Notes: a model not told the origin generated them from the letters alone. 64,000 bases of DNA from a plasmid (GCF_054482595.1 NZ_JBTHVH010000001.1); one strand, 5' to 3'. Shown: positions 1,213 through 25,370, counted from the first letter of the stretch. A program made the numbers and translations.

Positions 1213-1736
1213 CGGTCAATGGGGCCATCGACTGGCTTAACCGCGCTTCTTATTTTTTCACCCTTGATCCATCCCCAGACAATATGCGGCGCGTTGGTCG
1301 TGGCCGCCGTCGCCGTGGTGTTTGTTATTGCATGGCACTACCCGATGTTAAAGAACGTGAAGTCAGAGATGGCGTTCTGTGCTTCCGTCGTGTGGCTGAA
1401 CGCGGCATGGAGCCAAAAAATACGAATTCTCCCGAGTGGTGGGCGTGGCGCTGGTCCGCACATTTCGGCCTTTGCGAAGATGAGAATGAAATTGCCAGCG
1501 GCAATAGTGCATATGGTGCTCTGAACCTGGCTTTCCATATCGGATTCAAACATGTAGCTCTGGTGGGCGTTGACGCTACGCAAGAACTACGCGTTCACTC
1601 CGGCGGCACGCCAAAAAATCTAAGTCACCTGCCTTTGTTATTCCAGTCTGCGCGTGAACAGATTGACGTTGTTTCATGCGGGAAAATGGGAGGTATTCCG
1701 CAGATGACTCTTAAAGAATGGCTGAAGAATACATGA
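1110..1736 (+). CDS. hypothetical protein with VGSGPS...IIAVNG motif (paralog of previous gene)
   Basis: 208-aa ORF; [29 protein letters not shown]; overlaps the previous ORF by about 100 bp in another frame. Confidence 0.5.
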
Positions 1737-2410
1737 TGGCACCCACAATTTATCACCGTATCGACGGTACCAAATACAGGAATGTCTGGGTTGTTGGTGA
1801 TCTGCATGGTTGCTACACCAGACTGATGTCCGAACTCCATCGTGTGGATTTTGACCCGGCGCAGGATTTACTGATATCGGTCGGCGACCTTATCGATCGC
1901 GGTACTGAAAATGTCGAATGTCTGGAACTATTGCAGATGCCCTGGTTCAGGGCAGTGATGGGGAACCATGAGCGGCTGATGATTGATGCGTTAAGTCCAG
2001 ATGGCAACGTGAATAACTGGCTAATGAATGGCGGACAATGGTTCTTCATGCTGGACACTGATCAGGAAATATTAGCCTGGGCGCTGGTGGAGCTGGTAAA
2101 GCGTCTGCCCTATATCATTGAGTTGAACACGGGGCAAGAAACTATCGTTATAGCCCATGCCGACTATCCGGATAATGAATACCAATTCGGTAAGGAGGTG
2201 CCGCTTTTCAACGTTGTCTGGGCGCGCGAGCGTATCAGTGATTCGATGGATGATATTGGTGGCGAAATTTCGGGCGCAGATCGTTTTATCTTTGGTCACA
2301 CTCCGGTGAAAAGCCCGAAGACATTCTGGAATCAGCAGTATATCGACACTGGTGCCGTATTTTGCGGAAACCTGACATTGATGAAAGTGAAAGGTGATGG
2401 TGCAGCATGA
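1718..2410 (+). CDS. ppp: Ser/Thr protein phosphatase, lambda-PPase/calcineurin-like
   Basis: Metallophosphatase motifs GDLHG, GDLIDRG, GNHE; position matches P1 ppp as recalled; start could be 1733/1736. Confidence 0.8.
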
Positions 2411-3108
2411 AGATTGCTTTAGTTTTTCGCTCTGGTGGTGACTATAACGCTTCCGATGTGCAGTGGCTGGTTAATCAACTGCCAAAAGACTATGAAATTA
2501 TTTGCCTGACAGACCTGAAGTGTTTACATGTACCTGGCGTCAAAGTTATCCCATTGATCAACCAGTGGCAAAAGTGCCGTGGCTGGTGGGCGAAAATCGA
2601 GTTGTTCCGACCGGATATAACCGATGATCTGTTCTATCTGGATTTGGACACGGTTATTGCCGGTGATATACGCCCAATCCTAGAGCATCCACCAACCAGC
2701 TTCACCATGCTTAGGGATTTTTACCATCCACAATATCGTGGCAGCGGTGCCCTGTGGATACCAAATAGTGTTAAAGCGCATATCTGGAGTTCATTCTGGC
2801 AAGATCCGGAAGGTTGGATTTCTCGTTGTGTCACTACTGAGTGCTGGGGTGACCAGGGGTTCTTACGAAAGGTTATGGGCGATGATACACCAGCATTTCA
2901 GGATCTGTATCCAGGATGGTTTGTAAGTTACAAGGCCGATGTTGTGGAACCTGGTTCAAAATATGCGAGCGCGCGTTACTCCAGGGGGAATGGGGCATTA
3001 CCAAAAGACTGCCGAATAATCTTTTTCCACGGCAAACCGCGACCTCGCGAAGTGTCAGAGGATTGGCTTCCCCTTATCAGCTCATTTTTTGAGCGAGAAT
3101 CAGAATAA
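2407..3108 (+). CDS. hypothetical protein (233 aa)
   Basis: ORF with ATGA start/stop overlap to the phosphatase gene; DLD motif, fold not assigned. Confidence 0.55.
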
Positions 3109-3109
3109 T

Positions 3110-3126
3110 ATTGCTCTAATAATTCC
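3110..3126 (+). promoter_or_regulatory. C1 repressor operator-like site
   Basis: ATTGCTCTAATAATTCC vs P1 C1 operator consensus ATTGCTCTAATAAATTT. Confidence 0.6.
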
Positions 3127-3137
3127 ATATTTTTAAA

Positions 3138-3166
3138 ACGTGATGTACACTCATCACGTTTTTTAT
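3138..3166 (+). terminator. Rho-independent terminator-like hairpin
   Basis: stem acgtgatg / catcacgt with 7-nt loop followed by T-run. Confidence 0.5.
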
Positions 3167-3175
3167 TAGAGCAAT
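3159..3175 (-). promoter_or_regulatory. C1 operator-like site (inverted)
   Basis: ttttttattagagcaat, reverse complement resembles operator consensus; forms inverted pair with 3110..3126. Confidence 0.45.
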
Positions 3176-3189
3176 CTACAAGGTGCACT

Positions 3190-3408
3190 ATGTGGCCATT
3201 CCGACGGAAATATCACTACTGGCTGATCGCCTTTGTTACGCCGACCGGCGGTATCAGGCATGTCATCACCAGGTATCGCAACAAGAGACTCACCTTAGCC
3301 AGAATTTTACAGGCTGCCATAGGTGAGGGACTGGATACAAATTGCGTAGTCCTTCCTCCTTCATACTTAGGAAAAATGACCGAAGCACAAGCTAATACGG
3401 AACTTTGA
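3190..3408 (+). CDS. hypothetical small protein (72 aa)
   Basis: ORF directly downstream of operator pair; weak SD. Confidence 0.4.
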   Translation: MWPFRRKYHYWLIAFVTPTGGIRHVITRYRNKRLTLARILQAAIGEGLDTNCVVLPPSYLGKMTEAQANTEL

Positions 3409-3409
3409 A

Positions 3410-4672
3410 ATGAGCACTTCAGCACAAAACCAATCAATCGAAAATGTATGTATCCCTGATGTCCTGAATGCCGGTATCCCGGCCATTATCCAGAACATCC
3501 GGGCCGCGCAACGCCGCGTTAGTTGTGATGACCTCACAGCACGTTTTTTTGATAATGCGGTTCAGTCAGCGGAGATGCTTCACGCACAGCTTATTGATGT
3601 TTATAACGCAGAAGCTGATAGCCATAACTCCCTGGTAGATGCAGCTGAAAATATGCAGTTGGATCTCGGTCTGAAGGGTAAAGAAATTGAAGAGCTTCAG
3701 CTGCAAATTGAACATTTGAAACGCCAGCAACAGGACGCGATCGACGATGCGACGCATGACGCCAACCAGCGTGCTGATAATGCCGAACGTATAAGCATTG
3801 AGCTGGAAACAAAACTCAATGAAATGACCGCGATGGTTGAACTGCGGAACTCACAGATTTCAACGCTAAAATCTCAATATAAAGAGATCATGAAACTTGA
3901 TCCTTTTAACCTTGAGAAACGCTATAACAAAGCTAAAAGCGAGCGACAGGAACTGCGTAAGCAGGTCGCCGACCTTAACCAACAGCTCAAAAAAACTATT
4001 AAAGATGCAAGCGAAGCGCGCGTGGCATTTGCTAATAAAAAAGCAGAGGTTACCGCGCTGGTTAATGAGAATGCCAAATTTGCGACGCTCAAGAAGGAAA
4101 TGTATGGCATTACTGAGCGCCGTTTCCCTGCAAGCAAACTTCATCCGACGTTAGGGCAAATCTCCTTCTTCCCGCGCCTCCTGGCTTATGGGATCTCATC
4201 GCCTAAAGAGTTCAATAACGAGCGTCCTTATATCGTTTCTAAACTGGACTTTGCTTATCAGTTCTGCTGCGACATGGGCTATGCCATTGATATCCGAATC
4301 AACGAATGGTTGATGCCAAACTTCCAGCCGCTGGCCATTTTCCGCGAGTTCCAGCCGGAAGGTTGGGTAGAGTTCTTCCATGAATTGATCTGTAAAGAGA
4401 TGGAAAGCCGCCGCCCGGAACTGGTCCGCCGTGTCGAGTGGGCGCAAGAGGTTATGTTGGCAGATGCAGAGCTGCCGTTCGAACCGGAATTTATTGATGA
4501 TCTGGCAGCTAAAGGGCTGCATACCCTGTTTGATGTGGTTACCCGCCGTCATGAGCAGTTGGTTGTCGAATTGGGTTTAGAGGAAACAGCGGCAAGAAGA
4601 CTTCTCGATGTTTGCTATGCACGTAGCGATGCATGGGAAAAAGAGAACGGCGGCACTATTTACGTTCGCTGA
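3410..4672 (+). CDS. coiled-coil protein (420 aa)
   Basis: Long ORF, heptad-rich central region (EELQLQIEHLKRQQQ...), followed by terminator. Confidence 0.6.
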   Translation: MSTSAQNQSIENVCIPDVLNAGIPAIIQNIRAAQRRVSCDDLTARFFDNAVQSAEMLHAQLIDVYNAEADSHNSLVDAAENMQLDLGLKGKEIEELQLQIEHLKRQQQDAIDDATHDANQRADNAERISIELETKLNEMTAMVELRNSQISTLKSQYKEIMKLDPFNLEKRYNKAKSERQELRKQVADLNQQLKKTIKDASEARVAFANKKAEVTALVNENAKFATLKKEMYGITERRFPASKLHPTLGQISFFPRLLAYGISSPKEFNNERPYIVSKLDFAYQFCCDMGYAIDIRINEWLMPNFQPLAIFREFQPEGWVEFFHELICKEMESRRPELVRRVEWAQEVMLADAELPFEPEFIDDLAAKGLHTLFDVVTRRHEQLVVELGLEETAARRLLDVCYARSDAWEKENGGTIYVR

Positions 4673-4693
4673 CAGTTACAGTGTCACTTTTAA

Positions 4694-4728
4694 TGCTGGT
4701 GGAGTGCGCCCACCAGCATTTTTTTCGT
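4694..4728 (+). terminator. Rho-independent terminator
   Basis: gctggtgg agtgcgc ccaccagc hairpin followed by attttttt. Confidence 0.55.
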
Positions 4729-4744
4729 CCAATGAGGAGGGCAT

Positions 4745-5251
4745 TTGAGTATTTTCAATAAACACGCACACCAGGAACGTCCGTATATCGTCATAGTTGA
4801 TATTGATGGAACAATATCAGAGGCAACTGAAGACAGACTGCATTTGCTTCCGCCACCAGGTAAAGGTGCATTAACAAAGGACTGGAACGAGTTTAATCTC
4901 GCCTGTGACACCGATACTCCCATCACTCCAGTTATTGATATGGTGCGCCAGTTATTTAACGTTTACACGGTCTGGTTTGTAACCGGGCGCTGTGAGATCG
5001 CAAGGGATAAAACACGAGCCTGGCTGCGGAAGTACGTAACAAACGGGGCTGAGCCTTTGCTATCTATGCGTCCTGCCACCGATGACAGAAATGACGGCCC
5101 AGCAAAGATTGATCTCCTTAAGAAAATTGGTCTAAGTAAAATCGCGTTCGCGCTGGAAGATAAGATTGAAGTGGCGCGTGTTTTCAGGAGGCACGGCGTG
5201 CTTACGTTAATGGTCAGGGAGTATGAAAATGCGCTTCTTCATCAACAATGA
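4745..5251 (+). CDS. HAD-superfamily phosphatase/nucleotidase-like protein
   Basis: TTG start with AGGAGG SD; VDIDGTI (DxDGT) motif near N-terminus. Confidence 0.6.
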   Translation: MSIFNKHAHQERPYIVIVDIDGTISEATEDRLHLLPPPGKGALTKDWNEFNLACDTDTPITPVIDMVRQLFNVYTVWFVTGRCEIARDKTRAWLRKYVTNGAEPLLSMRPATDDRNDGPAKIDLLKKIGLSKIAFALEDKIEVARVFRRHGVLTLMVREYENALLHQQ

Positions 5252-5267
5252 TTGCTCTAATAAATCT
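5251..5267 (+). promoter_or_regulatory. C1 operator-like site
   Basis: ATTGCTCTAATAAATCT, 16/17 match to consensus. Confidence 0.65.
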
Positions 5268-5349
5268 TGATTTTTAAAACGGAGAAAGTGAAAATAAAAA
5301 CATGCCGCAAGGCGCGGCATGTATCCAATCAATCACAGGAGCTGAAAAT

Positions 5350-5436
5350 ATGAACACGGCATTCAAAATCATTATGGCCGCGATCTATTTCTGGCTGTTC
5401 TCTATCACTTTTGGCGGCATCGTCGCACATGGGTAA
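5350..5436 (+). CDS. candidate small hydrophobic peptide (28 aa)
   Basis: AGGAG SD 7 nt upstream of ATG; MNTAFKIIMAAIYFWLFSITFGGIVAHG; below the ORF-track size cutoff. Confidence 0.3.
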   Translation: MNTAFKIIMAAIYFWLFSITFGGIVAHG

Positions 5437-5445
5437 GGGGGATGC

Positions 5446-6174
5446 ATGAAAGGCGAAGTGAAAGAGCGCGGCATGATTTTCAACGATGAGATGGTCCGGG
5501 CCATCCTCGAAGGAAGGAAAACGCAGACGCGGCGGATAATGAAAAATCAGCCTGCGGAAGTTGGTCCAGAAGCACCAGTGATGGTTAGAAAAATTGGTGC
5601 AGGTTTTCAGTGGTACGGGGCTGATGGTGTAAGCAGTGTTTTCAATTGCCCATTTGGTATCGTCGGCGATCGAATTTGGGTTCGTGAAACATGGGCGATA
5701 TTAGGCAATGAGGATGGTTGCAGTGTGGACTGGAACGACAACCTTTGTCGTGGCGATGAGAAGAACGCAGCAAGGATTTATCGGGCCAGTTGCGAGCAAA
5801 AACCTGGTGATTACGGCTTATGGTCGATACCCGATGATGCCGACTGGAAACCTCACACTGTGAATGAAAAGTTTGATGGTGGGTGGCGTCCATCAATTCA
5901 CATGCCGCGATGGGCATCACGCATTCTGTTGGAAATTACCAACGTGCGCGTTGAACGGTTGAACGATATCAGCGAATGCGATGCAAGGGCTGAGGGCGTT
6001 CCGCCTGCTGGAAGTTTGCTTCCTGATCACCCGGGAACATTCCTTACTCCCAAGGGGGATTTCGCAATGGCCAAGGTTGCGTTCCAGCGCCTGTGGGAAT
6101 CCATCTATGGTGAAGAAAGCTGGAACGCTAATCCCTGGGTGTGGGTAATCGAGTTTAAGCGCATTCAGGAATAA
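5446..6174 (+). CDS. ASCH-like domain protein (242 aa)
   Basis: N-terminal FNDEMVRAILEGRKTQTRR resembles ASCH/PUA-like motif; good SD. Confidence 0.5.
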   Translation: MKGEVKERGMIFNDEMVRAILEGRKTQTRRIMKNQPAEVGPEAPVMVRKIGAGFQWYGADGVSSVFNCPFGIVGDRIWVRETWAILGNEDGCSVDWNDNLCRGDEKNAARIYRASCEQKPGDYGLWSIPDDADWKPHTVNEKFDGGWRPSIHMPRWASRILLEITNVRVERLNDISECDARAEGVPPAGSLLPDHPGTFLTPKGDFAMAKVAFQRLWESIYGEESWNANPWVWVIEFKRIQE

Positions 6175-6177
6175 ACC

Positions 6178-7056
6178 GTGAGTATGCATCAAGTCGTCAG
6201 CTTTTCAGGTGGACGAACATCGGCTTATCTCGTTCATCTGATGGAAGCACAGCGAAAAGCTGGCGCTAGCGTCCATTTCATTTTTATGGATACCGGCTGT
6301 GAACATCCTCTGACGTATCGCTTTATTCGTGAGGTTGTGAAGTTCTGGAACGTACCGCTAACGGTGTTGCAGGTCGATATAAATCCAGAACTTGGGCAGC
6401 CAAATGGTTATACGGAATGGGAACCAAAGGATATTCAGACGCGAATGCCGGTGCTTAAACCGTTTATGGACATGGTTAAAAAGTACGGTACGCCATACAT
6501 CGGCGGCGCGTTCTGTACCGACAGGCTAAAACTCACCCCTTTCACGAAATATTGCGATGACCATTTTGGGCGAGGGAATTACATCACATGGCTCGGTATT
6601 CGTGCGGACGAACCCCGTAGGCTGAAACCGAAACCGGGCGTCCGGTATCTTGCCGAACTGTCAGATTTTGATAAGTCGGATGTTATCCGGTGGTGGCGAA
6701 AACAACCTTTTGATTTGCAAATCCCGGAGCACCTCGGGAACTGTGTTTTTTGCATCAAAAAGTCAACGCAAAAGCTGGGGCTTGCATGTAAAGACGAACC
6801 AGGTCTGATGCGGGTTTTTAATGAACTGGTTACAGGCAAACACGTCAGGGATGGTCATCGCAGAACAGGTAAAGACGTTATGTACCGTGGCCACCTGACG
6901 CTTGACGGGATTGCCAGAATGTATGCCGACAGTGACTACAGAAATTTGTATCAGGCGATGGTGCTGGCCAAGCGGTTTGATACTGGTTCGTGTTCCGAAT
7001 CATGTGAAATCTGGGGTGACCAATTGGAGTTGAAATTCGAAGAGGTAGTGGAATGA
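6178..7056 (+). CDS. PAPS reductase-like PP-loop ATPase family protein
   Basis: SGGxxS PP-loop motif VSFSGGRTSAY; 292 aa. Confidence 0.75.
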   Translation: MSMHQVVSFSGGRTSAYLVHLMEAQRKAGASVHFIFMDTGCEHPLTYRFIREVVKFWNVPLTVLQVDINPELGQPNGYTEWEPKDIQTRMPVLKPFMDMVKKYGTPYIGGAFCTDRLKLTPFTKYCDDHFGRGNYITWLGIRADEPRRLKPKPGVRYLAELSDFDKSDVIRWWRKQPFDLQIPEHLGNCVFCIKKSTQKLGLACKDEPGLMRVFNELVTGKHVRDGHRRTGKDVMYRGHLTLDGIARMYADSDYRNLYQAMVLAKRFDTGSCSESCEIWGDQLELKFEEVVE

Positions 7057-7256
7057 CAATCGTAAAAACCCATACCGGTACCGTGATCACCAAAGATGGC
7101 CCGAAGGTAAAAAAACTGCACCAAACAGAGCGGATGTGGGTCGTTGGCAAAAACGAGTTTTACCACAAAGAAACTGGACGCCGCCACTTTGCAGAAAATA
7201 CGCGCCGTCGACTGCTGTTAGACACCATCAAGCCTATCGAGGTGAAGCATGTTTAA
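7053..7256 (+). CDS. hypothetical small protein (67 aa)
   Basis: ATGA overlap with upstream gene suggests translational coupling. Confidence 0.45.
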   Translation: MTIVKTHTGTVITKDGPKVKKLHQTERMWVVGKNEFYHKETGRRHFAENTRRRLLLDTIKPIEVKHV

Positions 7257-15610: not shown

Positions 15611-16804
15611 GTGACCTGGGACGATCACAAGAAGAATTTTGCTCGCCTGGCGCGAGATGGTGGTTACACCATCGCACAGTATGCCGCCGAGTTTAATCTT
15701 AACCCTAATACTGCACGTCGTTATCTCCGTGCCTTCAAAGAAGACACCAGGACAGCGGACAGCCGCAAGCCAAATAAGCCAGTCAGGAAGCCACTAAAAA
15801 GCATGATCATTGATCACTCTAATGATCAACATGCAGGTGATCACATTGCGGCTGAAATAGCGGAAAAACAAAGGGTTAATGCCGTTGTCAGTGCCGCAGT
15901 CGAGAATGCGAAGCGCCAAAATAAGCGCATAAATGATCGTTCTGATGATCATGACGTGATCACCCGCGCCCACCGGACCTTACGTGATCGCCTGGAACGC
16001 GACACCCTGGATGATGATGGTGAACGCTTTGAATTCGAAGCTGGCGATTACCTGATAGATAACGTTGAAGCGCGGAAGGCCGCTCGCGCTATGTTGCGTC
16101 GGTCCGGGGCCGATGTTCTGGAAACCACTCTTCTGGAAAAGTCTCTTTCTCATCTCCTTATGCTGGAGAACGCCAGGGATACGTGTATTCGTCTGGTGCA
16201 GGAAATGCGCGATCAGCAAAAAGACGATGATGAAGGGACTCCGCCTGAATATCGTATCGCGAGCATGCTAAACAGCTGTTCCGCGCAGATAAGCAGCCTG
16301 ATCAACACCATTTACAGCATCCGGAATAACTATCGAAAAGAAAGCCGGGAGGCGGAAAAGCACGCTTTATCTATGGGGCAAGCTGGCATTGTTAAGCTGG
16401 CATACGAACGAAAGCGTGAAAATAACTGGTCAGTGCTGGAAGCAGCTGAATTCATCGAGGCGCATGGCGGAAAAGTGCCGCCCCTGATGCTGGAGCAAAT
16501 CAAAGCCGATCTGCGTGCTCCTAAGACCAATACCGATGATGAGGAAAGGCAAACAGCCGTCGGTGGCCCTTCTCTTGAAGATCTGGACAAAGTTGCGCGA
16601 GAACGGGCCGCCAACCGCCGCGCCGATGCCGCATTGTGGATTGAGCAGCGTAGGGAAGAAATCGCCGATATCGTTGATACAGGCGGTTATGGAGATGTTG
16701 ATACTGAAGGTGCATCAAACGACCCATGGCTGGAACAAGACCTGGACGAAGACGAGGAGGAAGACGAAGAAGTTACCCGCAAGCTATACGGGGATGATGA
16801 TTAA
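15611..16804 (+). CDS. pacA: terminase small subunit / pac recognition protein
   Basis: 397 aa; contains the hexanucleotide pac site; GTG start with AAGGAAG SD. Confidence 0.9.
15804..15962 (+). other. P1-type pac site (packaging cleavage region)
   Basis: Four TGATCA elements (15804, 15811, 15823, 15838) and three TGATCA/G elements (15934, 15946, 15957) flank a ~90-bp core. Confidence 0.8.
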
Positions 16805-18288
16805 TGGCCAGAAGTTGCGTAACGGATCCACGTTGGCGCGAGCTGGTGGCGCTATATCGTTATGACTGGATTGCTGCCGCTGATGTTTTGTTCGGCAAAA
16901 CACCTACCTGGCAGCAGGATCTGATTATTGAGTCTGTGCAGGAACAGGGTAGCAAGACATCTGTTTCGTCTGGTCACGGTACCGGGAAATCAGACATGAC
17001 TTCTATCATGATCATGTTGTTCATAATCATGTATCCCGGTGCCCGCGCCATTATCGTTGCGAACAAAATTCAGCAGGTAATGACCGGTATATTCAAGTAC
17101 ATCAAGATAAACTGGGCTACTGCCACCAGCCGTTTTCCATGGCTTGCTGATTATTTTGTTCTGACAGAAACCGCTTTCTATGAGGTTACTGGTAAAGGTG
17201 TATGGACTGTAGTACCGAAGGGCTTTCGTCTGGGAAGTGAAGAAGCTCTCGCCGGTGAACACGCAGATCATCTTCTGTATATTATCGATGAAGCCTCCGG
17301 TGTCAGTGATAGAGCTTTCGGTATCATCACCGGTGCTCTTACCGGACAGGATAACCGCATCTTATTACTGTCACAGCCTACACGCCCAAGCGGCTATTTC
17401 TACGATACTCATCATAAACTGGCCAAGCGTCCTGGTAACCCTGATGGCGTTTATACGGCGATCACGCTTAACAGTGAGGAATCACCGCTGGTAACGCCAG
17501 CATTTATCAAAATGAAGCTGGCGGAGTACGGCGGGCGCGATAACCCTATGTACATGATTAAGGTACGCGGCCTATTCCCTAAATCACAGGATGGCTTCCT
17601 TCTTGGACGTGATGAGGTTGAACGTGCAACGCGGCGGAAAGTCAAGATTGCCAAAGGATGGGGCTGGCTTGCATGTGTGGACGTTGCTGGTGGTACGGGA
17701 AGGGATAAGTCCGTTATCAATATCATGATGGTGTCCGGCCAGAGAAATAAACGCCGTGTAATCAACTATCGAATGCTGGAATACACAGACGTTACAGAAA
17801 CGCAGCTTGCCGCCAAAATTTTCGCAGAATGTAATCCTGAGCGATTCCCAAATATCACCATAGCGATAGACGGCGATGGGCTGGGTAAAGCAACAGCGGA
17901 TCTGATGTACGAGTATTATGGTATTACCGTACAGCGTATACGCTGGGGTAAAAAGATGCATAGCCGTGAAGATAAGAGCCTGTACTTTGATAAACGTGCT
18001 TATGCCAACGTTCAAGCCGCAGAGGCCGTAAAATCTGGTCGTATGAGACTGGATAAGGGTAATGAAACTATTGAGGAAGCGTCGAAAATCCCTGTAGGGA
18101 TTAACTCCGCAGGTCAATGGAAGGTGATGAGTAAGGAGGATATGAAGAAAAAACTCAACCTGCACTCACCAGACCATTGGGATACATATTGTTTCGCTAT
18201 GCTGGCGGATTATGTTCCCCAGGACGAAGTGCTTAGCGTCGAAGACGAAGCGCAGGTTGATGAAGCTCTGGCATGGCTTAATGAATGA
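16804..18288 (+). CDS. pacB: terminase large subunit
   Basis: 494 aa; ATG overlaps pacA stop. Confidence 0.9.
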
Positions 18289-18291
18289 ACA

Positions 18292-18308
18292 TTTGCTCTA
18301 ATAAATTG
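18292..18308 (+). promoter_or_regulatory. C1 operator-like site upstream of icd/ant module
   Basis: TTTGCTCTAATAAATTG, 15/17 to consensus. Confidence 0.6.
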
Positions 18309-18438
18309 TGTTTTTTAACTACCGATGTTACATTGAACCTGACCTCTTGCGCCTTGAGGCATTTTCGGTTTATGCTTATCAGGCACCTCAGTAAAACGGG
18401 TGCCGGGATTGGCCTCCCGCTTAAGTCTAAGGCGATAC

Positions 18439-18462
18439 AGACGCCGCTCGCGTCTTTTTTTT
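18439..18462 (+). terminator. terminator-like hairpin inside the ant leader
   Basis: agacgc cgctc gcgtct followed by T7 run. Confidence 0.45.
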
Positions 18463-18479
18463 GTATCGGCGTACACGCA

Positions 18480-18600
18480 CACCTCTACAATGGTGGGCTG
18501 TATGGGGCTACCTTCGGGTAGGCTGGTTACCTTGGACGCCAGTAAGGCCAACTCCGTACAGTCCACCGCCAGCAAGATTGGTCTCTTCTGCGGTGGTTAC
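18480..18600 (+). ncRNA. candidate c4-like antisense RNA region (boundaries not resolved)
   Basis: UUCG-loop hairpin ggctaccttcgggtaggc; CCTTGGACG (18530..18538) near-complementary to GTCTAAGG at the icd SD. Confidence 0.25.
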
Positions 18601-18627
18601 ATACCAACGTCTAAGGAGGCTGCCAAT

Positions 18628-18849
18628 ATGGCTACTATCCCTACCCCAACTCATCCTGAATTTATCTGGCGCTTTTACTCCTGCCAAAAACGTCACTATC
18701 ACTTCGTTATTGCACCGACAGAAGATGAGGCACGTTCTCAGCTTCCTGACGCCCCATGTATTTTCTCTGCCCGTTTTTCCACTGATTCACGCAATTCTCT
18801 CAGTTACTGGTGCCTCCCTGTTAACGCTTCTGCTCAGGAGGGACTATGA
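18628..18849 (+). CDS. icd: Icd-like small protein (73 aa)
   Basis: ORF whose stop overlaps ant start (ATGA); AGGAGG SD. Confidence 0.55.
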   Translation: MATIPTPTHPEFIWRFYSCQKRHYHFVIAPTEDEARSQLPDAPCIFSARFSTDSRNSLSYWCLPVNASAQEGL

Positions 18850-19964
18850 GAACATCGTTAGTTACCCGTGAAGAGATGATCGAGGCAATTGAACAGCACA
18901 CTGCCTGTATCAGTACCAGGGATATACCAGGCGTTATTGCCAACTACTTCATGATCACCAAACAACTTTACCGGAGAAAGGACAAGAACGCGGTTCACCG
19001 TATCCTGTTGTCTGATATCCGCGAATACCTGCTCGAACAGGGTCATCTGAATTACGCAACCGTCGCAGCCGAATCACGCAAGGAGGCACACAGAATGAAA
19101 GCAACTAACGTTAAATCAGAAAAAATTCATGCACCTTCAGTTCAGGAATCGGAGCTGGTGGTTGTTCAGAATCAGTCTGATGAAATTCCCGTTCTGGAAT
19201 GGCAGGGAGTGCGTGTAGTGACAACCGAGACTCTTGCTAGAGGGTATGGGACAGAAACAATCCGTATTCGCCAAAATCATCATGAGAACAAAGTACGCTT
19301 TGTTGAAGGGAAGCACTTTTTCAAAGTTGAAGGAGAATCATTGCGCGAGTTGAAGCACAGAGTAGCTTTAAACTACTCTGTAAAAATTGCTCGCAATGTT
19401 CGCTCACTCACCCTCTGGACAGAACGCGGCGCAGCCCGCCACGCTAAAATGCTCGAAACCGATCAGGCATGGGCATTCTTTGAAAAACTGGAAGACAGCT
19501 ACTTCCGACAAAAAGAACAGCAACCGATCGCAATCCCCCAAACATTACCAGAAGCCCTACGCCTGGCTGCCGAACTGGCTGAACAAAAGCAGCTTCTGGA
19601 ACAGAAAGCCCACCAGCTAAATCAGCAGCTGGTGGCCGCCGCTCCTAAGGTCGATTTTGCCGACCGGGTATCAGTAGCTAAAGGGATCCTGATTGGGAAT
19701 TTTGCAAAGGTTGTTGGACTTAAGCAAAACGCGCTGTTTGTCTGGTTACGGGAGAACGGCATCCTGATAGCGTCCGGTGGACGTAAAAATGTGCCGTTCC
19801 AGCAGTACATCAACGCGGGGTATTTCACGGTGAAAGAAGTGGTGCTGGATGATGAAGATGGCTACCAGATACGGTTGACGCCTCAATTAACGGGTAAAGG
19901 CCAGCAGTGGTTGACGCGTAAACTGCTCGATGCTGGCTTGTTAAAACCGGTGGCGGCTGAATAA
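18846..19964 (+). CDS. ant: antirepressor (central Rha/ORF6N-like domain, C-terminal KilAC-like domain)
   Basis: 372 aa; C-terminal FADRVSVAKGILIGNFAKVVGLKQNALF resembles KilAC/Ant C-terminal domain. Confidence 0.75.
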   Translation: MRTSLVTREEMIEAIEQHTACISTRDIPGVIANYFMITKQLYRRKDKNAVHRILLSDIREYLLEQGHLNYATVAAESRKEAHRMKATNVKSEKIHAPSVQESELVVVQNQSDEIPVLEWQGVRVVTTETLARGYGTETIRIRQNHHENKVRFVEGKHFFKVEGESLRELKHRVALNYSVKIARNVRSLTLWTERGAARHAKMLETDQAWAFFEKLEDSYFRQKEQQPIAIPQTLPEALRLAAELAEQKQLLEQKAHQLNQQLVAAAPKVDFADRVSVAKGILIGNFAKVVGLKQNALFVWLRENGILIASGGRKNVPFQQYINAGYFTVKEVVLDDEDGYQIRLTPQLTGKGQQWLTRKLLDAGLLKPVAAE

Positions 19965-19968
19965 TGGA

Positions 19969-19990
19969 AGAATGCCCGGTTGATGCCGGG
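19969..19990. terminator. palindromic hairpin between convergent ant and c1
   Basis: atgcccgg ttgatg ccgggcat perfect inverted repeat. Confidence 0.45.
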
Positions 19991-19996
19991 CATAAT

Positions 19997-20848
19997 TTAT
20001 TGCGCGCTTTCGGGGTTGTCGTTTACTGGCTGCCCCTTCTTGGTTTTACGGCTGCGCGTAACTGATGCGGCTGACTTAACCTTTTTCTCTTCGCGAGTGA
20101 TGGCAATTTGTTTTTTTACATTTTCAATATCTGCCAGGCGATATATTTTTGCTTGCGGCCAGCGGTCGCAGATGATCGGTTCTATGGAGTCATAAAGGCT
20201 AAATTTTGCTTTTTCGAATTCACCGTTGATGATAATTCCATCACGGAGAGTTTCATCGCAGATAAACACGCCACACAGTGGCACATGGTAACTAACTGAT
20301 TTACCATCATTGTAGTTAGGGCTACTGGAAATGTAGTGGACGCGCAGCATTGTTTCGCTAAAGCCGTGTACGCGCATACGGAATTTTTCATCCTCCGGGT
20401 ACTGCCTCATTAGCTCTTTTGTTGCTTCCAGGTTCTCTATGTATTTCGCACTGTGCTCATTGATCCCCGCGCTTTTTTGGATGCGAATGTCCTTATCAAT
20501 CAGATGAATAATGCGGCCAGCGGTCATGTTGACGCTGTTCACAGCTTCTGTCTGATAAGTTGTAACCTTGCGCACACCGCGAAGGATGTTAGGCACTGGA
20601 TATAAAATAGTCTTTGGGATATTGAGGTCTGGGTACTGTTCCAGTTCCCGCGCCATTAAAGTCCATTTATCAATTTCAGCCTGAATGCTGTCTGTTTCTT
20701 TGAACGGTAGAACGACAACCGGGCGTACAGGACGACCGTCGCTGGCGGCATCAACGTGTTGGGCGCGTGCAACAGCTTTTTTTAGAAAGAGATCCCTGAA
20801 GCTGACGAACTCCTGGTACAGTTGTTCGCCGTAGACATAATTTATCAT
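19997..20848 (-). CDS. c1: C1 master repressor
   Basis: 283 aa MINYVYGEQLYQEFVSFRDLF... matches recalled P1 C1. Confidence 0.9.
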   Translation of the reverse strand: MINYVYGEQLYQEFVSFRDLFLKKAVARAQHVDAASDGRPVRPVVVLPFKETDSIQAEIDKWTLMARELEQYPDLNIPKTILYPVPNILRGVRKVTTYQTEAVNSVNMTAGRIIHLIDKDIRIQKSAGINEHSAKYIENLEATKELMRQYPEDEKFRMRVHGFSETMLRVHYISSSPNYNDGKSVSYHVPLCGVFICDETLRDGIIINGEFEKAKFSLYDSIEPIICDRWPQAKIYRLADIENVKKQIAITREEKKVKSAASVTRSRKTKKGQPVNDNPESAQ

Positions 20849-20942: not shown

Positions 20943-20959
20943 AGATTTATTAGTGCATT
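20943..20959 (-). promoter_or_regulatory. weak C1 operator-like site
   Basis: agatttattagtgcatt, about 13/17 to reverse-complemented consensus. Confidence 0.35.
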
Positions 20960-21168
20960 TATTGTGAGTCTAACTGGTTAGTTGTCATGAGATATTCGAT
21001 TGTGTCAGTGAGGTCATCCAGGTCGTCTTGGGTGATGCGGTACTCCTGATTGGATATCTTTGAGTAGTGTTCAGCAATGGCGCGGGCAGCGTCGGTTTCG
21101 GCAGGGTCTACAGATAAAGCGTTAGAGCAATGTCTAACGTCGTCGATGGTTGGTTGAATGAAAGCCAT
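20959..21168 (-). CDS. coi: C1 inactivator
   Basis: 69-aa ORF directly upstream of c1 on same strand. Confidence 0.8.
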   Translation of the reverse strand: MAFIQPTIDDVRHCSNALSVDPAETDAARAIAEHYSKISNQEYRITQDDLDDLTDTIEYLMTTNQLDSQ

Positions 21169-22001: not shown

Positions 22002-23033
22002 ATGTCCAATTTACTGACCGTACACCAAAATTTGCCTGCATTACCGGTCGATGCAACGAGTGATGAGGTTCGCAAGAACCTGATGGACATGTTCAGGGAT
22101 CGCCAGGCGTTTTCTGAGCATACCTGGAAAATGCTTCTGTCCGTTTGCCGGTCGTGGGCGGCATGGTGCAAGTTGAATAACCGGAAATGGTTTCCCGCAG
22201 AACCTGAAGATGTTCGCGATTATCTTCTATATCTTCAGGCGCGCGGTCTGGCAGTAAAAACTATCCAGCAACATTTGGGCCAGCTAAACATGCTTCATCG
22301 TCGGTCCGGGCTGCCACGACCAAGTGACAGCAATGCTGTTTCACTGGTTATGCGGCGGATCCGAAAAGAAAACGTTGATGCCGGTGAACGTGCAAAACAG
22401 GCTCTAGCGTTCGAACGCACTGATTTCGACCAGGTTCGTTCACTCATGGAAAATAGCGATCGCTGCCAGGATATACGTAATCTGGCATTTCTGGGGATTG
22501 CTTATAACACCCTGTTACGTATAGCCGAAATTGCCAGGATCAGGGTTAAAGATATCTCACGTACTGACGGTGGGAGAATGTTAATCCATATTGGCAGAAC
22601 GAAAACGCTGGTTAGCACCGCAGGTGTAGAGAAGGCACTTAGCCTGGGGGTAACTAAACTAGTCGAGCGATGGATTTCTGTCTCTGGTGTGGCTGATGAT
22701 CCGAATAACTACTTGTTTTGCCGTGTCAGAAAAAATGGCGTAGCTGCGCCATCTGCCACCAGCCAGCTATCAACTCGCGCCCTGGAAGGGATTTTTGAAG
22801 CAACTCATCGATTGATTTACGGCGCTAAGGATGACTCTGGTCAGAGATACCTGGCCTGGTCTGGACACAGTGCCCGTGTCGGAGCCGCGCGAGATATGGC
22901 CCGCGCCGGAGTTTCAATACCGGAGATCATGCAAGCTGGTGGCTGGACCAACGTAAATATTGTCATGAACTATATCCGTAACCTGGATAGTGAAACAGGG
23001 GCAATGGTGCGCCTGCTGGAAGATGGCGATTAG
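22002..23033 (+). CDS. cre: Cre tyrosine recombinase
   Basis: 343-aa protein recognised as P1 Cre across its length. Confidence 0.98.
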   Translation: MSNLLTVHQNLPALPVDATSDEVRKNLMDMFRDRQAFSEHTWKMLLSVCRSWAAWCKLNNRKWFPAEPEDVRDYLLYLQARGLAVKTIQQHLGQLNMLHRRSGLPRPSDSNAVSLVMRRIRKENVDAGERAKQALAFERTDFDQVRSLMENSDRCQDIRNLAFLGIAYNTLLRIAEIARIRVKDISRTDGGRMLIHIGRTKTLVSTAGVEKALSLGVTKLVERWISVSGVADDPNNYLFCRVRKNGVAAPSATSQLSTRALEGIFEATHRLIYGAKDDSGQRYLAWSGHSARVGAARDMARAGVSIPEIMQAGGWTNVNIVMNYIRNLDSETGAMVRLLEDGD

Positions 23034-23623: not shown

Positions 23624-24676
23624 TCATTCAGCCGCCACCGGTTTTAACAAGCCAGCATCAAGTAGCTTGCGAGTCAACCACTGCTGGCCTTTACCCGTTA
23701 ATTGGGGCGTCAGCCGTATCTGGTAGCCATTTTCATCATCCAGCACCACTTCTTTCACCGTGAAATACCCGGCGTTGATGTACTGTTGGCGCGGTACGTT
23801 TTTGCGCGCACCAAAAGCCATGAGAATGCCGTTCTGGCGCAACCATGAGAAAAGGGCGTTTTGCTTCAGTCCAACGACCTTTGCAAAGTTCCCGATCAGG
23901 ATTCCATTAGCCACTGATACCCGAACGGCAAAATCGACTTTAGGGGCTGCGGCCACCAGCTGCTGATTTAGCTGGTGGGCTTTCTGTTCCAGAAGTTGCT
24001 TTTGTTCAGCCAGCTCGGCAGCCAGGCGCAGAGCTTCGGGGAGTGTTTGGGGGAGCACTGGAGAAGCAGTGTTAGCCTGCTGCAATTCCTCCAGTTTGTC
24101 GATCAGCGAACGGCGGACCGCTTTTGACTCGCGCGCGGCAACTCGCAGGGCTTGTTTGTAGGTCATGGAGATAGTTTCAGATGTTGTGTTGTTTAATTTT
24201 TGCACTACGAAAATTTCGTAGTACTCACCATCCAGTTCATCCTTAACTCTGGCAATAAAATCATTATTGCGAACTGGTTTTTCGCTGCATAATTTCCGCG
24301 CTTCATTGACCATCTTCAACAATGTTTGGCTGTCTATTGTGTCGCCGCTGTTGGGGATAACATTCACGGCTGGTGCAGTTGTTCCCAAAGACTTCGTAAC
24401 TACAGCGTCTGGTTTGCTTGCTTTCATTCTGTGTGCCTCCTTGCGTGTTTCGGCTGCGACGGTTGCGTAATTCAGATGCCCCTGTTCGAGCAGGTATTCA
24501 CGGATATCGGTTAGCAGAATGCGGTGAACCGCGTGTTTGTCCTTTCTCCGGTAAAGTTGTTTGGTGATCATGAAGTAGTTGGCAATAACGCCTGGTATAT
24601 CCCTGGTACTGATACAGGCAGTGTGCTGTTCAATTGCCTCGATCATCTCTTCACGGGTGACTAATGACGTTCTCAT
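23624..24676 (-). CDS. antirepressor paralog with alternative central domain
   Basis: 350 aa; first ~85 aa and last ~110 aa nearly identical to 18846..19964 product, middle unrelated. Confidence 0.7.
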   Translation of the reverse strand: MRTSLVTREEMIEAIEQHTACISTRDIPGVIANYFMITKQLYRRKDKHAVHRILLTDIREYLLEQGHLNYATVAAETRKEAHRMKASKPDAVVTKSLGTTAPAVNVIPNSGDTIDSQTLLKMVNEARKLCSEKPVRNNDFIARVKDELDGEYYEIFVVQKLNNTTSETISMTYKQALRVAARESKAVRRSLIDKLEELQQANTASPVLPQTLPEALRLAAELAEQKQLLEQKAHQLNQQLVAAAPKVDFAVRVSVANGILIGNFAKVVGLKQNALFSWLRQNGILMAFGARKNVPRQQYINAGYFTVKEVVLDDENGYQIRLTPQLTGKGQQWLTRKLLDAGLLKPVAAE

Positions 24677-24894
24677 AGTCCCTCCTGAGCAGAAGCGTTA
24701 ACAGGGAGGCACCAGTAACTGAGAGAATTGCGCAAATCGGTAGAAAAGCGGGCAGAGAAAATACAGGGAGCATCCGGAAGCTGAGAACGTGCCTCATCTT
24801 CTGTTGGTGCGATAACGAAGTGATAGTGACGTTTCTGGCAGGAGTAAAAGCGCCAGATAAATTCAGGGCGTGCGCAAGGATTGGCATTAACCAT
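24673..24894 (-). CDS. Icd-like small protein, second copy (73 aa)
   Basis: Same architecture as 18628..18849; differs in first ~10 residues. Confidence 0.55.
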   Translation of the reverse strand: MVNANPCARPEFIWRFYSCQKRHYHFVIAPTEDEARSQLPDAPCIFSARFSTDLRNSLSYWCLPVNASAQEGL

Positions 24895-24899
24895 AGTTA

Positions 24900-25205
24900 C
24901 GGCCTCATGTACAGGTTTAACAACCTGCTATCCGCTGCTAAACGGGTGGCAGGACGTGACGGGGTTAGCAGACTGGCGTACATGAAACCAGCAGGCCGAA
25001 GCCTCCCCATCACGCCCCACCATAATTCGGGCGTAACGTGGTTTTACGGACACAAAAATACCGCAATATCGGATATCTGCGGTTGTCCGCATGTACATTC
25101 AGGCTGCTAAACCCGGTCGCAGAATTTGCTACGACGGCGGAACTATAAGCCTGAATGACAGGAAGATCAATAGTCTGGCGTTCAATGGTAGTATTTTTGC
25201 TCCAA
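24900..25205 (-). ncRNA. candidate c4-like antisense RNA region of second module (boundaries not resolved)
   Basis: Leader between operator and icd-like ORF; UUCG-loop hairpin gaggcttcggcct; sequence unrelated to forward-copy leader. Confidence 0.2.
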
Positions 25206-25211
25206 TAAATC

Positions 25212-25228
25212 AAATCTATTAGAGCAAT
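25212..25228 (-). promoter_or_regulatory. C1 operator-like site upstream of second icd/ant module
   Basis: aaatctattagagcaat. Confidence 0.6.
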
Positions 25229-25370
25229 AAATTATTATCCCAAGCTTTACAGTGCGCTGTAAAATTCAAACCTTCGGGTCAGTGGCGGAATCGTATTTCA
25301 CTCACGGAATGAGTATTATTAGTTTTGTCATACATAGCTAGGTAATGAATCACTTGAAGGAACTACGAAC

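Follow-up and report, generated by a model that had tools for sequence, protein, structure and literature searches.

Genes and Context of the pacB-c1 Insertion

The window, by which is meant the whole stretch of 64,000 nucleotides that was analyzed, is derived from an E. coli phage-plasmid of the P1-like type, as shown by its open reading frames (ORFs) and by comparison with near-identical IncY plasmids and phage RCS47. The ORFs of pacA (15611–16804), pacB (16804–18288), and cre (22002–23033), and those of the C1 repressor gene c1 (19997–20848) and coi (20959–21168) on the minus strand, are so annotated in these plasmids and in RCS47. Between pacB and c1, an extra operon of the immI type with a length of about 1.7 kb is inserted, which consists of an RNA leader, an icd-like gene, and ant; on the map of phage P1, c1 comes directly after pacB. 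P1-like phage-plasmids often carry resistance or virulence genes. For pTZ20_1P and RCS47, an ‘ant’ insertion between pacB and c1 has already been described, where RNA elements go unmentioned in the passages that describe the insertion (PMC6906374). A copy of the leader with an identity of at least 99% is found in 133 complete E. coli records, nearly all of which are plasmids of about 94–117 kb; pAPEC201602 (NZ_CP127299) is one example with an identical element.

The icd-like gene (18628–18849, plus strand) encodes 73 amino acids and matches the NCBIfam model phage_ICD_like with 49.8 bits against a cut-off of 25; its product is 80% identical to P1 Icd and is annotated as Icd-like in identical plasmids. 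The antirepressor gene ant (18846–19964, plus strand) encodes 372 amino acids with Pfam ORF6N and ANT/KilAC domains, and its ATG overlaps the icd stop codon in the sequence ATGA at 18846–18849. An Ant2-like internal start was read from the sequence at 19095 on the plus strand, preceded by AAGGAGG at 19080–19086. The Ant protein shares 56% identity with P1 Ant1 and 65% with the other Ant of the window, where the N- and C-terminal thirds are conserved and the middle domain is ORF6N. A 9-bp palindromic hairpin, which is terminator-like with a weak T tail, lies between the convergent genes ant and c1 (19972–19993) and is possibly the end of the operon.

A C1-repressor operator-like site, TTTGCTCTAATAAATTG, is located at 18292–18308 on the plus strand as the counterpart of P1 Oc4/Op51, and deviates at two positions from the consensus of the P1 operators, ATTGCTCTAATAAATTT. 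In the alignment to P1 it falls on the annotated operator Oc4, and it is a predicted C1 site; the window contains 11 operator-like sites, where 0.3 are expected. Two promoters are proposed on the plus strand. The upstream one (18306–18334, TTGTGT-17-TACATT), which the operator overlaps, may tentatively be equated with the annotated P2c4/P51a of P1. The main one (18347–18376, TTGCGC-18-TATGCT) would be the counterpart of P1c4/P51b and aligns with the P1 sequence TTGACC-17-TATAGT. A consensus promoter scan of 18200–18700 gave no plus-strand promoter, and neither of the two sequences reached the threshold; therefore, both were assigned solely by alignment to P1. The start predicted near 18383 is also where the Rfam isrK match described below has its position 1.

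IsrK-Like Element and Terminator

The 5′ part of the leader is an IsrK-like RNA element (18383–18462, plus strand), which was delimited using Rfam isrK, a terminator scan, and folding. In a scan of the whole window, Rfam isrK (RF01394) matches 18383–18460 over model positions 1–77 of 77, scoring 60 bits where the gathering score is 50, with an E-value of 2.4e-10, and the c4-a1b1 model (RF03163) stays below its gathering score at this element. The element begins with hairpin 1 (18383–18403) and hairpin 2 (18404–18419), the loop of which is the target site a1, UUGGCC[U] (18409–18415), complementary to the segment a′ of the C4 RNA. These are followed by the single-stranded target b1, GUCUAAGG (18425–18432), complementary to the segment b′ of the C4 RNA, and by the intrinsic terminator AGACGC-CGCUC-GCGUCU (18439–18455), the T run of which extends to 18462; all of these lie on the plus strand. 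Folding of the short RNA gives the same three hairpins, with an ordinary folding energy (z = −0.66).

The first-pass annotation had placed a terminator-like hairpin with seven T residues at 18439–18462, and the terminator scan recovers it there (AGACGC-CGCTC-GCGTCT in DNA). It had been taken as internal to a single antisense RNA; the terminator-like hairpin exists, but it would form the 3′ end of a distinct short IsrK-like RNA encoded before C4, and not that of the C4 RNA. A terminated RNA corresponding to 18383–18462 would accordingly be expected, with partial read-through into the remainder of the leader.

This arrangement is common among related loci. When such loci were grouped into 26 classes, as described below, a hairpin with a T run was found between b1 and C4 in 24 of the 26 classes, with 15 different hairpin sequences. 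P1 also has a hairpin with a T run between b1 and c4 (positions 384–416 of the extracted P1 locus, L003), a feature that is absent from the P1 record. An isrK match directly before a C4 match is also present in Gifsy-1, P13374, RCS47, and P4. The link between IsrK and C4 is not new, and an ‘IsrK-C4 immunity system’ has already been pointed out (PMC3632133).

C4 Antisense RNA

A C4 antisense RNA gene is located at 18486–18573 on the plus strand, 26 nt past the isrK match and with ant further downstream. The Rfam C4 family (RF01695) matches this segment over the full model (1–87 of 87) with 75.9 bits against a gathering score of 45 and an E-value of 4.7e-13. The RNA has a closing stem of 17 bp, a UUCG hairpin, CUACC-UUCG-GGUAG (18508–18521), and a second hairpin (18522–18543), the large loop of which carries b′, CCUUGGACG (18530–18538; CCTTGGACG in DNA). 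The segment a′, AGGCCAA (18545–18551), lies in the junction, and a tRNA-like GCCA tail is found at 18568–18571, all on the plus strand. The UUCG hairpin had been noticed earlier at 18503–18520; the hairpin is present, and only its position was slightly off.

Both the minimum-free-energy fold and the centroid fold of the C4 segment are the three-way structure of the family, with z between −3.5 and −3.7 and none of the 200 shuffled sequences as stable, so that the check by RNA folding proposed earlier came out in favor of a c4-like RNA. All of the 27 model pairs are canonical, and in nine of them both bases are different in the RCS47 copy, with pairing retained. From the alignment to the annotated 77-nt C4 of P1, the mature RNA would have its ends at about 18492 and 18570, corresponding to a length of about 79 nt, and cleavage by RNase P at the 5′ end may be carried over from P1. 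In P1, C4 is processed by RNase P, and ant is subject to Rho-dependent polarity.

In identical plasmids, the C4 region is covered by a partial ‘ash family protein’ pseudogene in the PGAP/RefSeq annotation. The leader might accordingly be a gene, or the remnant of a gene, of an ‘Ash family’ protein, with its RNA-like features being incidental; the Pfam family Phage_ASH matches the translation of 18400–18627 with an E-value of 9.6e-6, and an ORF from 18400 continues in frame into icd. However, indels of 2 nt and 4 nt among the relatives shift any reading frame, where the RNA pairs are kept, and a search of NCBIfam gave no family match for the leader translation (nor did it for either Ant of the window). 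The annotated fragment is without a start codon that has a ribosome site, and the second c4-icd-ant module of the window is without an in-frame upstream ORF. Furthermore, the P4 member of the Pfam family is an old ‘cI’ coding sequence on top of an Rfam C4/CI RNA match, and the immunity factor of P4 is an RNA. The protein-coding reading was rejected on the basis of the frame-shifting indels and the position of the P4 Pfam member on the CI/C4 RNA gene, and it retains next to no credibility. The ‘ash family protein’ pseudogene of the public records is a wrong annotation of the C4 gene, and the practical value of the present result is mostly one of annotation, where an RNA switch that is common in E. 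coli records is labelled as a pseudogene.

Target Sites and Pairing in the Window

The sequence GTCTAAGG occurs exactly twice in the 64 kb, at 18425–18432 and 18609–18616, both on the plus strand, where 0.82 occurrences per window are expected on both strands. This repeat, with its second copy over the icd-like Shine-Dalgarno sequence, had been listed in the first-pass annotation, and both copies are found as described. Downstream of C4, the target a2, UUGGUCU (18578–18584), pairs with a′ with one G-U pair and is located at the same position relative to C4 in 26 of 26 classes. The target b2, CGUCUAAGG (18608–18616), occupies the place that b2 has in the P1 annotation and overlaps the icd-like Shine-Dalgarno sequence AAGGAGG (18613–18619), 8 nt before the ATG at 18628; all of these are on the plus strand.

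The near-complement with one G-U wobble that had been reported at 18530–18538 is indeed CCTTGGACG, which pairs with CGUCUAAGG (18608–18616) over 9 bp and with GUCUAAGG (18425–18432) over 8 bp, each with one G-U pair. The duplex energy of b′-b2 ranges from −13.9 to −14.5 kcal mol−1. A single antisense–target pairing had been envisaged; the b pairing stands, but two antisense segments exist, and in the second pairing a′ (AGGCCAA) faces a1 (UUGGCCU) and a2 (UUGGUCU). The pairings are weaker in the class of the window than in its relatives, with b′ forming a G-U pair with both b sites and a′ with a2.

The short duplexes alone are only modestly unusual. Shuffled targets bound equally well in 13 of 1000 cases for b′-b2, 77 of 1000 for b′-b1, 31 of 1000 for a′-a1, and 321 of 1000 for a′-a2. 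Because single-sequence shuffles give modest significance, the case was not built on shuffling, and the decisive support is comparative. In RNAcofold calculations, C4 gained only −3.7 kcal mol−1 with the short RNA and −0.7 kcal mol−1 with the downstream leader, values that are uninformative because the algorithm treats loop-loop contacts as pseudoknots.

Comparative Analysis of the Specificity Codes

The comparison covered 80 Icd-linked loci, further C4 loci from IMG/VR, and the reference loci of P1, Gifsy-1, and Stx phages, which were grouped into 26 specificity classes by the sequences of b′ and a′. The segments were obtained by anchored extraction, and a matrix of duplex energies was calculated for cognate and non-cognate combinations. 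A column-covariation analysis of 25 whole leaders aligned using MAFFT was dropped because the P1-type and isrK-type leaders were shifted by 1–2 columns at a′/a2.

In all 26 classes, the best downstream complements of a′ and b′ are the a2 and b2 positions, and b2 lies on the Shine-Dalgarno sequence in every class; the upstream a1 and b1 were also found in most classes. The mean energy of b′-b2 over the 26 classes is −12.0 kcal mol−1 for cognate and −6.1 kcal mol−1 for non-cognate pairs. Non-cognate pairs equalled the cognate ones in none of 632 combinations for b′-b2 and none of 588 for a′-a1, in 3 of 632 for b′-b1, and in 27 of 588 for a′-a2. The a and b codes are shuffled among the classes, as is seen in the RCS47-type copies, which show all four combinations of two a′ with two b′ sequences. 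In the chromosomal element of E. coli ACN001, the leader is 91% identical to that of the window and has the same a sites, and b1, b′, and b2 are jointly replaced by a complementary set that is present in P13374. At the level of sequence, the antisense loops and their targets co-vary across the 26 classes and form a specificity code. The 26 natural a/b codes constitute a clean table that is open to testing.

The same data bear on whether the resemblance to C4 is due to chance, or whether the leader is a decayed and non-functional immI leader. Such a view could appeal to the modest significance of the short duplexes and to the G-U wobbles in both pairings. Against it stand two independent Rfam matches with E-values of 1e-10 to 1e-13, intact icd and ant genes, the near-identity of the leader in the 133 complete E. 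coli records, and the joint change of the three b sites in the close relative ACN001. Moreover, the 31 copies of the class of the window have no substitution in 18392–18453 and 18484–18625, where the RNA elements lie, and have 12 variable sites in 18290–18337. Chance is excluded because of the Rfam scores and the comparative data, and this view as a whole is largely refuted, leaving it with a negligible probability.

The window contains a second c4-icd-ant module, which is encoded on its minus strand, with the c4-a1b1 element at 25148–25096, C4 at 25027–24942, icd at 24894–24673, and ant at 24676–23624. This module is P7/P1-like with 85–94% identity, and its codes are CAUGUAC for b′ and CUGCUAA for a′. 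The b′ segment of the pacB-c1 module has duplex energies of −12.4 and −14.5 kcal mol−1 on its own sites and −9.4 and −7.1 kcal mol−1 on the sites of the second module. In contigs or genomes with at least two distinct modules, b′ always differs between the modules. The first-pass annotation contained neither this module at about 25 kb nor the a pairing, the C1 operator, and the IsrK-like identity of the 5′ element. Several c4-icd-ant modules that differ in their pairing codes can be present in one P1-like phage-plasmid, and they probably influence how related elements exclude each other on superinfection and induce each other as prophages.

Proposed Mechanism

From the observed sequence, fold, family membership, complementarity with covariation, and gene context, we infer, with a probability of about 0.85, that the pacB-c1 leader is the C4-type switch of an extra immI-type (anti-immunity) operon that silences icd and ant. 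The earlier suggestion of a c4-like antisense RNA with target repeats, following the logic of P1 c4, agrees with the Rfam C4 match, the P1 immI layout, and the covariation in the 26 classes and ACN001. Most likely, C4 blocks the translation of the cell-division inhibitor gene and the antirepressor gene.

The steps from transcription and processing to repression in trans and polarity, including the part played by the short RNA, would be arranged as follows. Transcription would start at the P1-like promoters, one of which is overlapped by the C1 operator, and many transcripts would end at 18439–18462 to give an IsrK-like RNA of about 80 nt with a1 and b1. Read-through transcripts would carry C4, which, in analogy with P1, RNase P would cut at about 18492 to release a stable RNA of about 79 nt. 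The b′ loop (CCUUGGACG) and the a′ junction (AGGCCAA) of C4 would then pair with b2 (18608–18616) and a2 (18578–18584), and icd translation would be blocked because b2 covers the Shine-Dalgarno sequence. Because ant starts inside the icd stop codon (ATGA), ant would be silenced as well through lost translational coupling and probably through Rho-dependent polarity, as in P1. When not silenced, Ant would inactivate the C1 repressor encoded next door. The specificity code of b′ and a′ would keep the module separate from the second c4-icd-ant module. By analogy, the pacB-c1 C4 may repress ant in trans and may confer heteroimmunity; in P1, the trans-acting c4 RNA is known to repress Ant synthesis (PMC8546580), and Ant binds C1 (PMC8198154; PMC8546580).

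The folding of the unprocessed read-through leader is relevant to the availability of C4. In its minimum-free-energy fold, a1 is bound in cis by a′, and b1 by b′, with a probability of 0.94–0.98 and an energy of −100.4 kcal mol−1, compared with −96.5 kcal mol−1 when the native C4 is enforced, a difference of 3.9 kcal mol−1. This cis-paired optimum is ‘structure A’ of the IsrK study (PMC4825925). C4 might stay sequestered unless processing is fast or folding takes place during transcription. The leader could accordingly act as an IsrK-type riboswitch in cis only, where the silent a1:a′/b1:b′ form is opened by a short trans-activator RNA and a free C4 repressor does not exist, and this is the model published for the homologous Gifsy-1 locus (PMC4825925). 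However, regulation in cis only leaves unexplained the complementarity of a2 and b2 in every class and the constant position of b2 on the Shine-Dalgarno sequence. In addition, the homologous 77-nt C4 of P1 is a processed trans-acting repressor (NC_005856 annotation; PMC8546580), the processed stable RNA STnc1160 exists in Gifsy-1 (PMC4825925), and conservation extends to the C4 fold and its tRNA-like GCCA tail. We consider the cis-only model improbable. A point against simple repression by C4 comes from Gifsy-1, where its homologue STnc1160, when constitutive, failed to oppose IsrK in the way expected of a plain repressor (PMC4825925).

Another conceivable mode of action is P4-like attenuation, in which control is mainly transcriptional: C4 bound to nascent a1/b1 enforces termination at 18439–18462, icd and ant are reached by little read-through, and the occlusion of the ribosome site is secondary. 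The site b1 is located 7 nt upstream of the terminator stem, a geometry that is conserved in all types, and P4 has the same arrangement of isrK and C4. The CI RNA of P4 is reported, in the account given in the IsrK paper, to pair with seqA and seqC and thereby terminate transcription early, and in Gifsy-1 read-through transcription rose 8-fold when IsrK was provided in trans (PMC4825925). On the other hand, a strong intrinsic terminator with a 6-bp GC-rich stem and U8 should work unaided, and the overlap of b2 with the Shine-Dalgarno sequence is universal. The same short IsrK raised the translation of anrP 139-fold, which is far above the transcriptional effect (PMC4825925). Attenuation as the principal mode is unlikely, somewhat less so than regulation in cis only, and it is not mutually exclusive with the blocking of the ribosome site.

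In the preferred reading, in which C4 blocks the icd ribosome site, the a1 and b1 sites of the short RNA would mimic the mRNA targets and would most likely serve to titrate C4, as for IsrK of Gifsy-1, or to allow C4-promoted termination, as for the CI RNA of P4. The short RNA may accordingly be a decoy for C4 or a site of C4-assisted termination, and the two roles do not exclude each other. Through the data of the 26 classes, the a1/b1 sites of P1, which had long lacked an explanation, are connected with IsrK, an RNA that has been studied by experiment. A more speculative extension, which we regard as conceivable though doubtful, is that the terminated a1/b1 RNA is a general third component, overlooked so far, of every immI module of the P1 type, including that of P1, and that this RNA acts as a decoy or as a landing site for C4-dependent termination and sets the C4 threshold. 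P1-like plasmids that stack two or three modules with different a/b codes would then possess an RNA-based kin recognition. If this were true, the stacked modules would decide which incoming relatives can induce the resident prophage.

Comparison with Known Systems

The closest parallel in layout is the immI operon of P1/P7 (c4-icd-ant1/2), which has the operator, two promoters, a1 in a hairpin loop, b1, a hairpin with a U run, C4 with its b′ loop and a′ junction, a2, b2 on the icd Shine-Dalgarno sequence, and icd overlapping ant. The P1 record (NC_005856) annotates Oc4, P2c4, P1c4, a1, b1, the 77-nt C4, a2, b2, icd, and ant1/2. The alignment to P1 and P7 that had been suggested as a check matches the leader to the annotated P1 immI feature by feature, and the same order of parts is found in the alignment of the window leader with P1, the P7-like copies, RCS47, P13374, and Gifsy-1. 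The operon of the window differs in that it lies between pacB and c1, whereas immI of P1 lies between sim and kilA, and its a1/b1-C4 unit is about 80% identical to the copies of Stx phages rather than to P1. The 5′ element scores as isrK and not as c4-a1b1; b′ is CCUUGGACG instead of CACUAAC and a′ is AGGCCAA instead of CUGUCAA. The terminator is stronger (U8) than that of P1, and Ant has an ORF6N middle domain, unlike P1 Ant.

The Gifsy-1 locus isrK-orf45(STnc1160)-anrP of Salmonella shares the IsrK RNA with a1/b1 and an intrinsic terminator, an RNA of the C4 family, and an antirepressor gene with b2 on its Shine-Dalgarno sequence. The validated IsrK pairs G28-C162 and G31-C159 (PMC4825925) map exactly onto the present pairing, with G28 and G31 in a1 and C159 and C162 in a′, and ‘orf45’ starts, at position 107, with the AUGG that is conserved where the C4 stem has its 5′ end. 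Gifsy-1 differs in that it is without icd, so that b2 is on the anrP ribosome site, and in that it has another promoter without a C1 operator. Its published mechanism is activation by a short RNA, where the C4 segment is read as ‘orf45’. Hfq binding and the activation of downstream translation in trans by the short RNA are known for Gifsy-1 only (PMC4825925).

The Stx-converting lambdoid phages P13374, TL-2011c, PA2/PA8, and Ss-VASD carry isrK-C4 before a Rha/antirepressor gene, and their copies are the closest relatives of the RNA unit, with 79–80% identity over 18384–18640. They differ in having a downstream regulator of the Rha type without icd and a different upstream promoter region, and their b/a specificities (CCUUGAUUG/GUAGCAA) are unlike those of the window. 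The P4 system of seqA, CI RNA, and seqC has the Rfam isrK and C4 matches in the same order and is grouped with the CA RNA anti-immunity system of N15 among the closest known systems. The P4 CI RNA differs in that, in the accounts drawn on here, its reported effect is to end the transcription of replication genes prematurely and not to block the ribosome site of an antirepressor.

The pacB-c1 ‘ant’ insertions of RCS47 and pTZ20_1P have the same site and gene content and a near-identical promoter/operator segment, and RCS47 also has isrK and C4 matches. The RCS47 record and the passages of the published description that concern the insertion site give protein genes only and no RNA. The RCS47-type C4 differs from that of the window in its stem sequence, by the nine compensatory pairs, and in its a/b specificities. 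The known concept is unchanged, and the locus is an ordinary member of a known phage RNA switch.

Results and Discussion

Besides the c4-icd-ant module in the pacB-c1 gap (module A), the window carries a paralogous second module on the minus strand at 23624–25250. It comprises a C1-operator-like site matching the operator consensus (25228–25212), which is followed by the Rfam c4-a1b1 match (25148–25096), a hairpin with a U run (about 25082–25051), the C4 RNA (25027–24942; Rfam, 71.7 bits), icd (24894–24673) and ant (24676–23624), all on the same strand. The antisense segments of its C4 RNA, which give the pairing specificity, are CAUGUAC for b' and CUGCUAA for a', and both differ from those of module A. 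The second module is placed after cre/cra, where P1 has ref-mat-res-mod, and the immI leaders of P7 and P1 are 85–94% identical to it.

When matches to the C1 operator consensus with up to 3 mismatches were counted over the whole window, 11 sites were obtained against 0.3 expected by chance. In addition to the site at 18292, these start at 3110, 3159, 5251, 14986, 20943, 21407, 21490, 25212, 34586 and 38436, and this abundance is consistent with a P1-type C1 regulon. At the other end of module A, ant and c1 converge with 32 nt between them; a perfect 9-bp palindromic hairpin, ATGCCCGG-TTGA-CCGGGCAT, at 19972–19993 takes up the greater part of this gap and may block ant transcription from entering c1 antisense.

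In almost every sampled record with an identical leader, RefSeq/PGAP annotates the C4 RNA gene of module A as a pseudogene, a partial "ash family protein" (at window 18502–18603, equivalent to 1712–1813 of record L086). The translated C4 region matches Pfam PF10554 (Phage_ASH), as does the old P4 "cI" CDS (L208, 8168–8584), which overlies an Rfam match to C4 (CI RNA); therefore, the family seems to have been built at least partly on a translated RNA gene. In the window, a stop-free ORF running from a GTG at 18400 to 18849 crosses the terminator, C4 and the downstream a2/b2 targets and enters icd in frame. Such an in-frame upstream extension of icd is absent from the second module of the window, so the ORF is probably accidental, and it may be the source of the protein mis-annotation.

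In a chromosomal element of E. coli ACN001 (L209, 2480–2745), a 1029-nt CDS named "ash family protein" covers the entire isrK-C4 region. The leader of this element is 91% identical to that of the window and has the same a sites, whereas b1, b' and b2 are all three together replaced by the set of Stx phage P13374.

Multiple modules were also seen on IMG/VR contigs. On IMGVR_UViG_2698536372_000019, a module-A-type C4 occurs twice on the same strand, at positions 1363 and 2929, and this spacing of 1566 nt suggests that the module was duplicated in tandem. On IMGVR_UViG_651053023_000001 (1683–7139), a stretch of about 5 kb holds two P1-type c4-icd modules arranged back to back, sharing the a' segment CUGCUAA and differing in b' (CGUAAGUG versus CAUGUAC).

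In P13374 (L004), an Rfam sRNA-Xcc1 match of 79.6 bits lies at 3523–3606, directly upstream of a second antirepressor gene and about 840 nt downstream of the isrK-C4 pair of the phage. The sRNA-Xcc1 consensus fold, in which a closing stem encloses two hairpins and is accompanied by a CACCC tail, is reminiscent of C4.

In the immI leader of P1 itself (L003, 384–416), a hairpin CCGCAG...UUGCGG followed by UAUUUUUGUGU lies between b1 and c4, at a position where the richly annotated P1 record NC_005856 has no feature. The sequence predicts that P1, too, would produce an IsrK-like short RNA carrying the a1/b1 target sites, and the hairpin with UAUUUUUGUGU occupies the same place as the IsrK terminator of its relatives.
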